Assembly: GCF_003334305.1 (NCBI RefSeq)
Contig: NZ_QOWS01000001.1
Strand: one strand, 5' to 3'
Length of the DNA: 64,000 bases
DNA from: Escherichia coli
GTDB taxonomy: Bacteria > Pseudomonadota > Gammaproteobacteria > Enterobacterales > Enterobacteriaceae
Made by a program: the position numbers and the translations under genes. Shown piece after piece: positions 13,736 through 37,117 of this stretch; within the stretch, counting starts at the first letter, position 1, and the number at the start of each line of letters is the position of its first letter. The notes beneath the pieces were generated by a model that made no database searches, had not been told where the DNA came from, and was given only the letters and a program-made list of their open reading frames with translations.

Positions 13736-13807
13736 ATGTAAATAACGACAAAAACAAAATTGGCCGCTTCGGTCAGGGCCAACTATTGCCTGAAAAAGGG
13801 TAACGAC

Positions 13808-15178
13808 ATGAAAAAATTAACCTGCTTTAAAGCCTATGATATTCGTGGAAAATTAGGCGAAGAACTGAATGAAGATATTGCCTGGCGCATTGGTCGTGCC
13901 TATGGCGAATTTCTCAAACCGAAAACCATTGTGTTAGGCGGTGATGTCCGTCTCACCAGCGAAACCTTAAAACTGGCGCTGGCAAAAGGTTTACAGGATG
14001 CGGGCGTTGATGTGCTGGATATCGGCATGTCCGGCACCGAAGAGATCTATTTCGCCACGTTCCATCTCGGCGTGGATGGCGGTATTGAAGTTACTGCCAG
14101 CCATAATCCGATGGATTACAACGGCATGAAACTGGTGCGCGAAGGGGCTCGCCCGATCAGCGGCGATACCGGACTGCGCGATGTCCAGCGTCTGGCAGAA
14201 GCCAACGACTTTCCTCCCGTTGATGCAACCAAACGCGGTCGCTATCAGCAAATCAATCTGCGTGACGCTTACGTTGATCACCTGTTCGGTTATATCAACG
14301 TCAAAAACCTCACGCCGCTCAAGCTGGTGATCAACTCCGGGAACGGCGCAGCGGGTCCAGTAGTGGACGCCATTGAAGCCCGCTTTAAAGCCCTCGGCGC
14401 GCCCGTGGAATTGATCAAAGAGCACAACACGCCGGACGGTAATTTCCCCAACGGTATTCCTAACCCGCTACTGCCAGAATGCCGCGACGACACCCGCAAT
14501 GCGGTCATCAAACACGGCGCGGATATGGGCATTGCCTTTGACGGTGATTTTGATCGCTGCTTCCTGTTTGACGAAAAAGGGCAGTTTATTGAGGGCTACT
14601 ACATTGTCGGCCTGCTGGCAGAAGCATTCCTCGAAAAAAATCCCGGCGCGAAGATCATCCACGATCCACGTCTCTCCTGGAACACTGTTGATGTGGTGAC
14701 CGCCGCGGGCGGCACGCCGGTAATGTCGAAAACCGGACACGCCTTTATTAAAGAACGTATGCGCAAGGAAGACGCCATCTACGGTGGCGAAATGAGTGCC
14801 CACCATTACTTCCGTGATTTCGCTTACTGCGACAGCGGCATGATCCCGTGGCTGCTGGTAGCCGAACTGGTGTGCCTGAAAGGAAAAACGCTGGGCGAAC
14901 TGGTGCGCGACCGGATGGCGGCATTCCCGGCAAGCGGTGAGATCAACAGCAAACTGGCGCAACCCGTTGAGGCGATTAACCGCGTGGAACAGCATTTTAG
15001 CCGTGAGGCTCTGGCGGTGGATCGCACCGATGGCATCAGCATGACCTTTGCCGACTGGCGCTTTAATCTGCGCACCTCCAATACCGAACCGGTGGTGCGC
15101 CTGAATGTGGAATCGCGCGGTGATGTGCCACTGATGGAAGCGCGAACGCGAACTCTGCTGGCGTTGCTGAACGAGTAA
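13808..15178 (+). CDS. cpsG: Phosphomannomutase (colanic acid copy)
   Basis: ATG at 13808 ([14 protein letters not shown]) inside ORF 13760..15178, 456 aa; phosphohexomutase TASHNP active-site motif. Confidence 0.95.
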
Positions 15179-34863: not shown

Positions 34864-35143
34864 ATGTACCTTCGCAAAACGGGATTACTCACAGCGAACA
34901 TGGCGTAATTTTGTACAAATCTGTTTTTTTTATCAGCAGATTATTTAGCAACCAGGCAAAAAATGTCATGCCTTTCTTCATTTTTACTTATATATCAATT
35001 GATTATAATTAATTGGTTTGGTAAATGTTTAAGATGTGTATTATTTGAGTAATCCATTAATTAGTCGGCTTTTATATTTTTTTTCCCAGCATGCAACGCT
35101 ATAATCTGCGAAGATTTTTTTGTGGAATGTGCAGTGTAGAGGC

Positions 35144-35428
35144 ATGAGTCGTTTATCCCACCAGTCGCAACATAACGCCGTCGTCGTGTGCAAAGAGCTG
35201 TCAAGCCCGAACGCGCGCTGCTTCTCTGGCGGCGAATACGATGTCTCTTCTTATCTTTCCTCGTATCGTAAATGCTCCTTTCTGATGGTTGCTGGCATCG
35301 GTAAATCACTTGATTCGTTTTTTTTGATGGCGGTGAGAGCATGTGTTTTGCCCCGCGTAAATGAGAAGGTCCTGATGGTTACTCTGGCGGCAAATGTGGA
35401 AATTGTGGGGCGTTTCGTGGCCTGGTGA
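35144..35428 (+). CDS. Hypothetical small protein (orphan ORF in the wzz-manC junction)
   Basis: 94-aa ORF from ATG 35144 (GAGG just upstream), in frame with a longer ORF from 35120; followed by a strong hairpin terminator; no recognisable domain. Confidence 0.3.
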   Translation: MSRLSHQSQHNAVVVCKELSSPNARCFSGGEYDVSSYLSSYRKCSFLMVAGIGKSLDSFFLMAVRACVLPRVNEKVLMVTLAANVEIVGRFVAW

Positions 35429-35444
35429 GGAACAGATACATATT

Positions 35445-35490
35445 AAAAGCAGAGATATGCCCTGAGACATATCTCTGCTTTTAGGTTTTC
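35445..35490 (+). terminator. Strong stem-loop / putative intrinsic terminator
   Basis: 11-bp near-perfect inverted repeat GCAGAGATATG...CATATCTCTGC followed by TTTTAGGTTTT. Confidence 0.65.
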
Positions 35491-35582
35491 AGGATGCCCG
35501 TTCCGTAAGGATGGTTTTTGAGACCGCTGAGTGAAGGGGCTGCCGACAGTCTGAAGCGAAAGAGGGTGGCGTTTAGCCTGGA

Positions 35583-35624
35583 GCACTACGCATTTTGGTT
35601 GCGATAGCCAATGGCGGTAGCGTA
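35583..35624 (+). promoter_or_regulatory. Degenerate JUMPstart-like element with ops-like site
   Basis: GGCGGTAGCGT at 35613-35623 with partial JUMPstart similarity upstream, about 80 bp before manC. Confidence 0.6.
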
Positions 35625-35701
35625 CCTGAAAAAGGCCATTCAACCCGTTGGTCGATTGATTGATAGTAAAATAAAACAATTATTTATTTAAGGATTTCAT
35701 T

Positions 35702-37117
35702 ATGTTACTTCCTGTAATTATGGCTGGTGGTACCGGCAGTCGTCTCTGGCCGATGTCACGCGAGCTTTATCCGAAACAGTTCCTCCGCCTGTTCGGGCAG
35801 AACTCCATGCTGCAGGAAACCATCACCCGACTCTCGGGTCTTGAAATCCATGAACCGATGGTCATCTGTAACGAAGAGCATCGCTTCCTGGTGGCTGAAC
35901 AGCTGCGCCAGCTAAATAAGCTGTCGAATAACATTATACTTGAGCCAGTCGGGCGCAACACCGCGCCGGCCATCGCCCTGGCGGCCCTTCAGGCCACCCG
36001 CTACGGTGACGACCCGCTGATGCTGGTTCTCGCCGCCGACCACATCATCAATAACCAGTCGGCCTTCCACGACGCTATCCGGGTCGCCGAGCAGTATGCT
36101 GATGAAGGTCATCTGGTCACCTTCGGTATCGTGCCGAATGCCCCGGAAACTGGCTACGGTTACATTCAGCGCGGCGTGGCGCTCACCGATAGTGCCCATT
36201 CCGCGTACCAGGTGGCCCGCTTTGTGGAGAAGCCGGATCGCGAGCGCGCCGAGGCTTACCTCGCCTCCGGGGAGTACTACTGGAACAGCGGCATGTTTAT
36301 GTTCCGCGCCAAGAAATACCTCATCGAGCTGGCCAAATACCGTCCGGATATCCTGGAAGCCTGCCAGGCTGCGGTGAATGCCGCCGATAATGGCAGCGAT
36401 TTCATCAATATCCCACATGATATTTTCTGCGAGTGCCCGGATGAGTCCGTGGACTACGCCGTTATGGAGAAAACCGCTGATGCGGTGGTGGTCGGTCTCG
36501 ATGCTGACTGGAGCGACGTTGGCTCCTGGTCCGCACTATGGGAGGTCAGCCCGAAAGACGAGCAGGGCAACGTCCTTAGTGGCGACGCGTGGGTACACAA
36601 CAGCGAAAACTGCTACATCAACAGCGACGAGAAGCTAGTGGCGGCCATTGGCGTAGAGAATCTGGTGATTGTCAGCACTAAGGACGCCGTGCTGGTGATG
36701 AATCGCGAGCGTTCCCAGGACGTGAAGAAGGCGGTCGAGTTCCTCAAGCAGAACCAGCGCAGCGAGTACAAGCGCCACCGTGAGATTTACCGCCCCTGGG
36801 GCCGTTGCGACGTAGTGGTCCAGACCCCGCGCTTCAACGTCAACCGCATCACGGTGAAACCAGGCGGTGCCTTCTCGATGCAGATGCACCACCATCGCGC
36901 CGAGCATTGGGTTATTCTCGCCGGCACCGGTCAGGTGACGGTCAACGGTAAGCAGTTCCTGCTGTCCGAGAACCAGTCCACCTTTATTCCGATTGGCGCC
37001 GAGCACTGCCTGGAAAACCCTGGCTGTATTCCGCTGGAAGTGCTGGAGATCCAGTCGGGGGCGTACCTTGGCGAGGACGACATTATTCGTATTAAAGACC
37101 AGTATGGTCGTTGCTAA
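35702..37117 (+). CDS. manC: Mannose-1-phosphate guanylyltransferase (O-antigen copy)
   Basis: 471 aa; paralogous to cpsB but clearly divergent at DNA level and more GC-rich; [11 protein letters not shown] motif. Confidence 0.93.

Follow-up and report, generated by a model that had tools for sequence, protein, structure and literature searches.

The DNA directly upstream of manC in the 64,000-nt stretch of Escherichia coli analysed here (the window, to which all coordinates refer) most likely consists of a promoter and a long untranslated leader that were imported together with the O8 polymannan O-antigen genes. Comparison with related loci suggests that the polymannan operon probably has its native control region (5′) in this junction, without a separate gene, and the finding appears largely ordinary, i.e., a leader with a predicted loading site for RfaH and a hairpin resembling a terminator. 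A sequence-only reading had left three options for this DNA. The regulatory leader is supported, since the junction is the native manC-upstream region of Klebsiella-type loci and contains conserved non-coding islands; the small accessory protein is unsupported, and decayed donor DNA holds only in part. All features described in that reading are present in the sequence, with small corrections. The junction and its borders contain the following elements:

~34752-34875, − strand: hisI pseudogene, a 3′ remnant that marks the left border of the imported DNA
34902-35034, no strand assigned: AT-rich upstream spacer, fast-changing and dispensable in many strains
35035-35094, + strand: island A, immediately before the −10 box, GATGTGTATTATTTGAGTAATCCATTAAT...TTTTATATTTTTTTT
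35100-35105, + strand: perfect −10 hexamer TATAAT, kept in 37/37 haplotypes
35110-35161, + strand: island C, with the putative transcript start and the ATG and first six codons of the ORF
35144-35428, + strand: 94-codon ORF, PGAP “hypothetical protein” WP_000088887.1
35351-35380, + strand: island E, CCCYGCGTAAATGAGAARGTCCTGATGGTT
35443-35493, + strand: terminator-like hairpin and T-tract, stem 35443-35459/35468-35484 with an 8-nt loop
35588-35624, + strand: JUMPstart-like element, small hairpin at 35595-35611, then ops GGCGGTAGCGTA at 35613-35624
35651-35701, + strand: AT-rich conserved stretch; contains AAGGA, the Shine-Dalgarno sequence of manC, at a distance of 7 nt from the ATG
35702-37117, + strand: manC, first gene of the O8 polymannan operon

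Origin and distribution of the manC upstream region

From position 34902 onward, the junction matches DNA of Klebsiella-type loci, namely the intergenic region that separates manC from a divergent NAD-dependent epimerase gene. This DNA was found upstream of both cluster types, O8/O5-like and O9/O3-like (with O8-like and O9-like wzm). Among 5426 complete E. coli genomes, 510 gave a partial match and 340 contained at least 80% of the junction. It is 100% identical in E. coli H15, from which the operon annotation was taken: manC is followed by manB, wzm, wzt, wbdD, wbdA, wbdB and wbdC, eight co-directional O8 genes extending to 47782.

The hisI remnant proposed to the left of the junction was confirmed. 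Its − strand translation (...LTNEVPDLMYRLLVLLQ...) matches the C-terminus of the resident HisI, 67 nt of it are 82% identical to the intact hisI at 47821-48429, and PGAP annotates a HisIE pseudogene at this position in strain C11. The remnant adjoins the terminator/REP of the resident wzzB. The promoter-like stretch following it had rightly been called AT-rich, with a GC content of 25-28% in 34900-35100. The spacer at 34902-35034 showed the highest substitution count among the long segments (1.25 parsimony changes/site) and is replaced up to ~35024-35033 by IS1 insertions or truncations in many E. coli genomes. These independent IS1 truncations all end just upstream of island A, and everything from island A onward is retained.

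Conserved islands and a candidate promoter

Substitutions were counted with a phylogeny-aware (parsimony) approach over 37 haplotypes, which gave a junction mean of 0.73 changes/site. Conserved non-coding islands alternate with DNA changing at the neutral rate. The conserved set comprises the −10 box together with the stretch before it and ~50 nt downstream, an island of 30 nt, both hairpin arms and the invariant 3′ T-tract, JUMPstart/ops and the manC ribosome-binding region. Island A (0.48 changes/site; internal windows P 0.001-0.04) lies directly before the −10 box and probably represents promoter-upstream or regulator-binding DNA.

The TATAAT had been placed at ~35099-35104, one base off its actual position, 35100-35105. 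It is the sole perfect −10 hexamer retained across all 37 haplotypes, and the surrounding CGCTATAATCTGCG is conserved as well. We infer that this site is the promoter of the leader and the operon, with transcription starting near 35112. It has no good −35 hexamer (best match 2/6 only, TTTTTT), and a consensus sigma-70 scan did not call it. Islands A and C, inspected by eye, contained no match to a sigma-54, sigma-E or RcsAB box. Between hairpin and JUMPstart, no conserved −10 matching at 4/6 positions or more was found in the 37 haplotypes.

Island C (0.19 changes/site; windows P 0.0002-0.0013) includes positions 35122-35140, which served as the metagenome search pattern, so these bases are ascertainment-biased; the flanks in island C and the independently found E. 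coli genomes are likewise conserved. Island E, at 0.17 changes/site (P 0.001-0.005), has neutral-rate DNA on both sides. Both islands are conserved, yet our best model gives neither of them a role.

JUMPstart/ops element and start of manC

The element at 35588-35624 precedes manC by 77 nt, has the same orientation (+ strand) and belongs to the non-coding leader of a long polysaccharide operon; it changes slowly (0.18 changes/site). It had been described as a degenerate JUMPstart/ops, which is inaccurate for ops. As a JUMPstart it stays below the gathering score of 35 for Rfam family RF01707, with 20.7 bits in the window (E 0.37) and 23.8 bits (E 0.014) in the Klebsiella-type allele L004, because its 5′ half differs; the canonical JUMPstart copy at 24737-24775 of the same window reached 56.7 bits. 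The ops sequence, in contrast, is not degenerate. Its 8-nt core GGCGGTAG is exact at 35613-35620 and invariant in 36/36 aligned sequences; the 12-mer GGCGGTAGCGTA of the window class agrees at 11/12 positions, and the Klebsiella class reads GGCGGTAGCGTG (12/12 in L004). The element presumably acts as the RfaH loading and pause site. Further downstream, the AT-rich stretch 35651-35701 with the manC Shine-Dalgarno sequence is conserved (0.22 changes/site), and the last ~18 nt before manC are common to the capsule-locus manC copy in Klebsiella contigs.

A terminator-like hairpin within the predicted leader

The near-perfect 11-bp-stem hairpin with a U-tract reported earlier is present, but its stem was understated. 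The inverted repeat is perfect over 16 nt (35444-35459/35468-35483), the fold has 17 pairs, and TTTTAGGTTTT follows on the 3′ side. On the + strand the fold is predicted at −22.5 kcal/mol (z −5.5), on the − strand at −27 kcal/mol (z −7.3), and on either strand none of 200 shuffles folded as well. All 16 hairpin variants retain the fold, with energies of −16 to −29 kcal/mol, and the alignment gave a column-shuffle z of −6.6. Its arms accumulated 0.18-0.29 changes/site, compared with 1.5 in the loop and 0.11 in the 3′ flank; arms that stay invariant while the loop turns over are a signature of selection on pairing. A stable G+C-containing stem directly followed by a U run, as expected of an intrinsic terminator, is present (17 pairs, then UUUUAGGUUUU), although the U-tract is interrupted, so termination may be weak. 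We infer an intrinsic terminator or attenuator on the + strand, within the leader and upstream of ops. An exact 20-mer covering the 3′ arm and the T-tract had only two chance matches, a Chitinophaga and an archaeal MAG, when one genome each of 100,044 species was scanned; by this exact scan, the representative genomes of these species, E. coli and Klebsiella included, lack the element.

Several further candidates were rejected. RNAalifold proposed 149 pairs in the leader, 7 of them with compensatory changes, and column-shuffled alignments folded equally well (z +0.38 and +0.28; single sequence z −0.08), which argues against a structured leader RNA beyond the hairpin. As an antiterminator, the 5′ arm of the terminator could pair with 35241-35256 (best 35242-35249), but we estimate that an 8-bp match is about what chance yields in 330 nt; no conserved alternative antiterminator pairing was detected in the DNA upstream of the hairpin, with its z of +0.38. 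An internal duplication of the leader, suggested by repeats ~158 nt apart (CTCTGGCGGCRAAT and GAAA..GGCGTTT), found no backing when the portions flanking the hairpin were locally aligned (P 0.19); the internal match of 35113-35159 with 35312-35354 was marginal (P 0.013).

The compactness of the segment from promoter to hairpin (~35112-35490) raises the question whether it is an independent ~380-nt non-coding RNA gene, or a leader RNA that is terminated and acts in trans. The conserved −10 box, the 5′ end in island C, island E and the terminator with its invariant U-rich tail would together make such a unit. Hfq-binding sRNAs typically end in a stable stem and a U-rich 3′ end, which the end of this unit resembles. 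We consider this reading unlikely. The lack of excess structure outside the hairpin speaks against it, its body evolves for the most part at the neutral rate, and there is no match to an Rfam family. The unit was found at this locus only, and manC has no second conserved promoter, so that read-through would be required anyway.

The 94-codon ORF

The ORF at 35144-35428 has the coordinates and length given in the sequence-only reading and, as noted there, no recognizable domain (no Pfam or NCBIfam match). We judge this ORF of the leader to be non-functional or due to chance, and not a conserved gene. The opposite view, that it is translated and matters, either as a small lineage-specific protein or as a leader ORF whose translation, irrespective of its sequence, governs terminator formation or protects the long leader from Rho, can draw on several observations. 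PGAP calls a gene in many genomes (“hypothetical protein” in 5/7 genomes with annotation examined), and the ATG with the first six codons lies inside the most conserved island. The 285-nt frame is open in 29/37 haplotypes, whose alleles are 79-81% identical, and no indel inside the ORF separates the major allele classes. Its stop codon (35426-35428) is close to the hairpin base, the terminator beginning 16 nt after it.

Nevertheless, we found no sign of purifying selection on the amino acid sequence and hold translation with a function to be quite improbable. The dN/dS ratio of 0.58-1.08 cannot be distinguished from the off-frame controls (0.46-1.52), compared with 0.04 for manC, and the ORF diverges at about the synonymous rate of manC (dS 0.24-0.31). 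Eight of the 37 haplotypes, E. coli HS and C11 among them, have a disrupted frame, through seven independent events (four frameshifts, one nonsense mutation and two stop losses). The indel density inside the ORF (5 events in 285 nt, 4/5 of them not multiples of three and thus frame-breaking) matches that of its 3′ flank (8 events in 273 nt). At the observed divergence the frame would stay open by chance with P 0.27-0.37, 20% of dinucleotide-shuffled versions of the region contain an ORF of at least 94 aa, and on the opposite strand a 93-aa ORF overlaps it. The codon-usage score of 0.06 bits/codon equals that of the real gene wzm and does not discriminate. Only 1 nt separates the ATG from a Shine-Dalgarno-like AGAGG, an unusable spacing, and this motif is deleted in the L004 class. 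Searches of protein sets with 5.8 billion and 1.84 billion entries returned only short, locus-derived proteins (8 clusters and 9 representatives), i.e., no homologs beyond the locus, and no antiterminator pairing above chance was found.

The small accessory protein is thus not supported, given the control-like dN/dS values, the seven disruptions and the missing homologs and domains. Conservation of the ORF in related loci, whose absence had been named beforehand as part of the refuting outcome, is lacking at the protein level. Decay of donor DNA describes the ORF body and the spacers, which change at about the manC synonymous rate, and does not describe the conserved islands. A 17-codon mini-ORF (ATG at 35374, after GAGAAGG) was considered as a leader peptide and rejected because its sequence is not conserved; the ATG is lost in L014 and the stop codon in L031 and L049. 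WP_000088887.1 and its relatives could be flagged as doubtful in annotation, as they show no sign of a real gene.

Orientation of the hairpin

An A-tract upstream of the hairpin, opposite the T-tract on its other side, gives it a bidirectional look. A rival reading takes it as a terminator or insulator that acts in both directions or on the − strand, or as the relic terminator of a lost upstream gene, in which case the real operon promoter would lie elsewhere. The window allele is indeed more stable on the − strand, three O8-class variants retain pairing on this strand only, and a − strand promoter-like site exists at 35708..35679. Furthermore, the canonical order from galF to JUMPstart is the end of an upstream gene followed by promoter and JUMPstart. 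The wobble-type changes of the O8 class favor the − strand, whereas those of the Klebsiella class favor the + strand, with variants that pair on the + strand only; because the allele classes oppose each other, covariation does not settle the strand. The 3′ flank TTTTAGGTTTTCAGG on the + strand had one change across 37 haplotypes and the 5′ flank varies, which favors a role on the + strand. There is also no − strand gene to terminate, a 78-aa − strand ORF being broken by 8-nt and 1-nt indels in relatives, and the ORF region has no homolog that would mark a gene relic. The stretch between hairpin and JUMPstart changes at the neutral rate and has no conserved −10 box. Overall, we regard a − strand or bidirectional element, or a relic terminator, as improbable.

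That the junction is functionless donor DNA except for ops and the manC ribosome-binding site, with islands reflecting recombination history, is very improbable: the alleles are mosaic (L049 changes from the L004-like to the window-like class at the hairpin), large parts evolve at the neutral rate and deletion and IS variants exist, but the islands are conserved across allele classes whose flanks diverged by 20-30%, the parsimony count follows the tree, the hairpin arms hold while the loop turns over, and the IS1 truncations consistently spare island A onward.

A proposed model of the polymannan operon leader

In the preferred reading as a native control region, transcription would start just downstream of the TATAAT at 35100-35105, with conserved A/T-rich DNA upstream of it, and produce an untranslated leader of ~590 nt. 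About 330-380 nt into this leader, RNA polymerase would meet the hairpin and U-tract (35443-35493), a putative partial intrinsic terminator acting ahead of antiterminator loading, which may cap or gate the number of polymerases that continue. Those reading through would reach the JUMPstart hairpin and ops (35613-35624), where RfaH would be recruited, and the RfaH-loaded polymerases should be termination-resistant across the 12-kb operon. manC would be translated from its own well-spaced Shine-Dalgarno sequence, and the 94-codon ORF would be a by-product of the leader sequence that is not maintained as a protein. Several points count against this model. RfaH cannot overcome a terminator placed upstream of ops, which makes the benefit of such a terminator doubtful; further points are the poor −35 match, the interrupted U-tract, the greater − strand stability of the window's hairpin, the low JUMPstart score and the conservation of islands C and E.

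A more specific variant, which we put forward only as a doubtful possibility, is a two-tier gating, in which the terminator precedes the RfaH site and a signal that targets the initial 380 nt determines how many polymerases reach ops. Such a signal might operate via islands C and E, translation of the leader ORF or a trans-acting factor, and the terminated product would be a discrete ~380-nt RNA, maybe with a function of its own. If true, this would constitute an RfaH-independent layer of O-antigen regulation common to Klebsiella O3/O5 and E. coli O8/O9. If the hairpin is inert, the finding comes down to a correct description of the operon leader.

The polymannans of E. coli O8/O9 and Klebsiella O3/O5 are model systems for ABC-transporter-dependent O-antigen synthesis and are relevant as vaccine antigens. 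Far more work has addressed the enzymology of these polymannans than their transcriptional control, and a literature search yielded no paper describing this operon leader. The conserved hairpin upstream of ops and the two conserved islands are concrete and cheap experimental targets.

Comparison with known leaders

The region resembles the JUMPstart/ops leaders of RfaH-dependent polysaccharide operons (RF01707) in that an untranslated leader precedes the first gene of a long operon. The canonical copy upstream of the galF-gnd O-antigen cluster (24737-24775) likewise has a small hairpin directly followed by GGCGGTAG. Different from the canonical arrangement, the predicted promoter here lies ~490 nt upstream of the element and a strong terminator-like hairpin stands between promoter and ops, whereas a simple scan of the canonical copy shows only a short 8-pair stem without a proper T-run ~60 nt before it.

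A promoter, a short upstream ORF, a terminator hairpin and then the operon also make up the his leader in the window (54898-55021; RF00514, 131.6 bits). Compared with such leader-peptide attenuators, the manC leader has neither a regulatory codon run nor an antiterminator pairing above chance, and its ORF is 94 codons long, lacks a usable Shine-Dalgarno sequence and occurs with a broken frame in several natural alleles. RirA, an sRNA that arises from the waaQ leader by premature termination and itself contains JUMPstart/ops, is another parallel, being a promoter-proximal RNA from an RfaH-controlled LPS operon leader that ends at a hairpin and U-tract. The putative terminated RNA of the manC leader has no Rfam family match and, unlike RirA, would end before ops.

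Finally, Rahn and Whitfield in 2003 reportedly described a stem-loop attenuator in the E. coli K30 group 1 capsule operon that is read through by RfaH-modified polymerase. Here as there, a terminator-like hairpin lies within a polysaccharide transcription unit carrying JUMPstart/ops. The K30 hairpin, however, is situated downstream of ops and can be suppressed by RfaH, whereas that of the manC leader lies ~130 nt upstream of ops, so that any read-through would have to be independent of RfaH.

Chromosomal setting and origin of the junction

The gene order in the window is colanic-acid genes, galF, a Wzx/Wzy O-antigen cluster, gnd, ugd, wzzB, the polymannan cluster and, downstream of it on the opposite strand, the his operon. 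The junction (34864-35701), 838 nt between the hisI remnant and manC, is 100% identical to that of E. coli strain H15, in which PGAP names wzm and wzt as O8 family. The genes around it are:

32245-33438, ugd
33581-34561, wzzB
35702-37117, manC, start of the O8-type polymannan cluster
after manC, up to 47782: manB, wzm, wzt, wbdD, wbdA, wbdB, wbdC

Directly 3' of wzzB (34578-34647) we found a strong terminator (GCGGGCAGGG...CCCGTTTTTTTT) and, behind it, a REP-like palindrome; this region scored 38.2 bits against Rfam naRNA4, below the gathering score of 59.5. The galF-gnd interval (24737-30498) contains a second, conventional O-antigen cluster of the O46/O134 family with wzx, wzy, three glycosyltransferases and an ATP-grasp gene. 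The strain thus has two O-antigen loci, of which the one at galF-gnd is probably inactive, as PGAP flags its wzy (about 27853-28977) as frameshifted in the identical strain H15. Besides the his operon leader, two RNAs scored above the Rfam threshold: the sRNA STnc240 (57760-57834) and an algC motif (13754-13803) upstream of ORF 13760-15178 in the colanic-acid region, probably the colanic-acid phosphomannomutase gene.

At the left edge, the hisI remnant proposed in the sequence-only reading was recovered on the - strand (about 34752-34875), its translation matching the HisI C-terminus, and PGAP annotates a HisIE pseudogene at the equivalent spot in strain C11. Compared with the intact hisI on the other side of the cluster (47821-48429; aligned part 47860-47926), it reaches only 82% identity over 67 nt, so the two copies differ in origin, e.g., recipient versus donor, or a recombinant. 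The adjoining stretch is as AT-rich as described, with a GC content of 25-28% across 34900-35100.

Among 5426 complete E. coli genomes, 510 matched the junction in part and 340 over at least 80% of it, the alleles forming two classes, at least 93% vs 80-85% identical to the window. Scanning metagenomes with a 19-mer taken from the leader, the predicted transcript from ~35112 to manC, yielded 48 further junction-containing loci; E. coli genomes and metagenome loci combined gave 37 distinct haplotypes spanning the whole junction. Three left contexts occur: ugd, wzzB and the hisI remnant (E. coli type); ugd, a small membrane protein gene and a divergent NAD-dependent epimerase gene (Klebsiella type, with similarity to the window beginning at 34902); and IS1 insertions truncating the region at about 35024-35033. 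Downstream, wzm is O8-like in some loci and O9-like in others. Because of the epimerase-manC context in Klebsiella-type loci and the presence of both wzm types, we regard 34902-35701 as the DNA that natively precedes manC in a donor-type locus, imported together with the cluster. This fits the accepted derivation of E. coli O8/O9 from Klebsiella (PMC7685785).

Conservation along the junction

Parsimony counts of substitutions per alignment column, made on a neighbour-joining tree, gave a junction mean of 0.73 changes per site, with sharp contrasts among segments.

Changes per site in segments of the junction
34902-35034, AT-rich upstream part: 1.25
35035-35094, island A: 0.48
35095-35109, -10 box and flanks: 0.33
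35110-35161, island C: 0.19
35162-35350, ORF body: 0.87
35351-35380, island E: 0.17
35381-35428, ORF tail: 0.94
35443-35459 and 35468-35484, hairpin arms: 0.18 and 0.29
35460-35467, hairpin loop: 1.5
35485-35493, 3' T-tract flank: 0.11
35494-35582, post-hairpin spacer: 0.92
35583-35626, JUMPstart/ops: 0.18
35651-35701, manC ribosome-binding region: 0.22

Conservation at 35122-35140 is biased by locus retrieval, as this was the metagenome search pattern; its flanks are also conserved, likewise in E. coli genomes found independently. Islands C and E (conserved non-coding segments, like A) are left unexplained by the leader model. Junk DNA is a less likely reading of this region, as its islands and hairpin arms change slowly.

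Putative promoter and upstream truncations

The reported TATAAT is present at 35100-35105; no other perfect -10 hexamer is shared by all haplotypes. A run of T, matching at 2 of 6 positions, occupies its -35 region, and a consensus promoter scan did not call the site. Between hairpin and JUMPstart no TANNNT hexamer scored above 3 of 6, and the rate of change there is neutral. In many genomes IS1 has truncated the region independently, each time stopping just upstream of island A, as would be expected if island A and the -10 box formed a minimal promoter that must be kept. In many E. coli O8/O9 genomes (including alleles L002, L005 and L051 and genome matches H16-H25), IS1 is inserted or homology cut off at 35024-35033, replacing the AT-rich part and always sparing the conserved -10 region.

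Two deletion variants presumably are O-antigen-negative. E. coli 51243816-SK1A retains 55 nt from the start of island A, followed ~55 nt later by an O9-family wzt, and lacks the leader, manC, manB and wzm; in E. coli MLI110 all DNA between about 35141 and a truncated glycosyltransferase gene immediately ahead of wbdC is replaced by an IS3-family element.

The 94-codon reading frame

A small accessory protein was one option of the sequence-only reading. The ORF exists (35144-35428; 94 codons, or 102 if TTG is taken as start); PGAP labels it a hypothetical protein in numerous genomes and leaves it out of others, strain HS among them. A number of tests speak against a functional product. Between allele classes, dN/dS was 0.58-1.08 in the ORF frame vs 0.46-1.52 in both alternative frames; the genome pairs compared gave 0.04 for manC (dS 0.24-0.31), and ORF divergence per site (dN about 0.15-0.25, dS about 0.19-0.32) equals manC dS. 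The frame is broken in 8 of the 37 haplotypes by seven independent events: four frameshifts (L002, strain HS; L003, strain C11, shared with L032; L022; L037), one nonsense mutation (L036) and two stop-codon losses (L031, L049). Of the five indel events in its 285 nt, four shift the frame; the density is comparable to that of the 3' flank (eight events in 273 nt). Dinucleotide shuffles contained an ORF of at least 94 codons in 20% of cases, and the chance of the frame staying open after the observed substitutions was P 0.27-0.37. The sole Shine-Dalgarno-like sequence, AGAGG, ends 1 base before the ATG and has lost one G in one allele class. Pfam and NCBIfam gave no match; a word-indexed search of 5.8 billion proteins returned just 8 matching clusters and exhaustive phmmer against 1.84 billion representatives just 9 matches, all short and partial, as would be expected of translated variants of the same junction DNA. 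The small-protein reading is not supported, and a translated leader ORF is less likely than the leader model.

The hairpin

The hairpin is stronger than the 11-bp stem first described: the inverted repeat is perfect over 16 nt, and the fold forms 17 pairs. Predicted stability is -22.5 kcal/mol (z -5.5) for the + strand and -27 kcal/mol (z -7.3) for the - strand; the stem is kept in 16 of 16 hairpin variants (-16 to -29 kcal/mol), with z -6.6 against column-shuffled alignments. It is the sole outstanding RNA structure in the leader. The whole 590-nt leader folded no better than shuffles (z -0.08), and RNAalifold helices with wobble-compatible changes were equalled by column-shuffled alignments (z +0.38 before and +0.28 after the hairpin). 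An independent small RNA is a less likely reading of this leader.

In O8-class alleles the wobble changes fit the - strand better, in Klebsiella-class alleles the + strand, so covariation does not decide on which strand the hairpin acts. The flanks favour a + strand role as terminator with U-tract, since TTTTAGGTTTTCAGG, 3' of the stem on that strand, shows one change in 37 haplotypes whereas the opposite flank is variable. A - strand or relic terminator, the former in line with the O8-class changes, is less likely.

The leader of L049 is a mosaic: L004-like (Klebsiella class, 97-100% identical) through the hairpin inclusive, turning to the window class within 90 nt after it (~35494) and 100% identical from JUMPstart on, which places the recombination breakpoint at or just after the hairpin. 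Weak internal direct repeats (35113-35159 vs 35312-35354; 35224/35382; 35399/35558), the best local alignment with P about 0.013 vs shuffles, and four copies of TGGCGG, the true ops included, may be traces of an old internal duplication and are not significant overall.

JUMPstart/ops and comparison with known leaders

The element described as a degenerate JUMPstart/ops is present, scoring 20.7 bits against the Rfam JUMPstart model (35588-35624; gathering score 35). The term degenerate does not suit ops, whose core GGCGGTAG has no mismatch and which agrees at 11 of 12 positions. The galF-gnd cluster carries a canonical JUMPstart (24737-24775, 56.7 bits). Ahead of the polymannan JUMPstart, the spacer of the window sub-lineage lacks 8 nt (GGAGCRCG) at 35579/35580 that most other alleles possess; located at a short direct repeat (CCTGGAGC.CGGGAGC), this looks like a slippage deletion.

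Every feature of the sequence-only reading proved real, its regulatory-leader option is supported, and we interpret the junction as the control region of the polymannan operon. A promoter would start a ~590-nt leader, which would pass a terminator-like hairpin, JUMPstart/ops and finally the manC ribosome-binding site. Because the hairpin lies ~130 nt upstream of ops, RfaH would be unable to help polymerase past it, so the hairpin may act as an RfaH-independent attenuator or mark where a short leader RNA ends.

The his operon leader, above the Rfam threshold at 54898-55021, is a leader-peptide attenuator; the O8 junction is not of this kind. In the K30 capsule operon the attenuator follows ops. 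The O8 junction resembles the JUMPstart/ops leaders of other polysaccharide operons in ops sequence and position, but differs in its sub-threshold Rfam score and in the long leader and conserved terminator-like hairpin before ops. It is a modestly unusual JUMPstart/ops leader.
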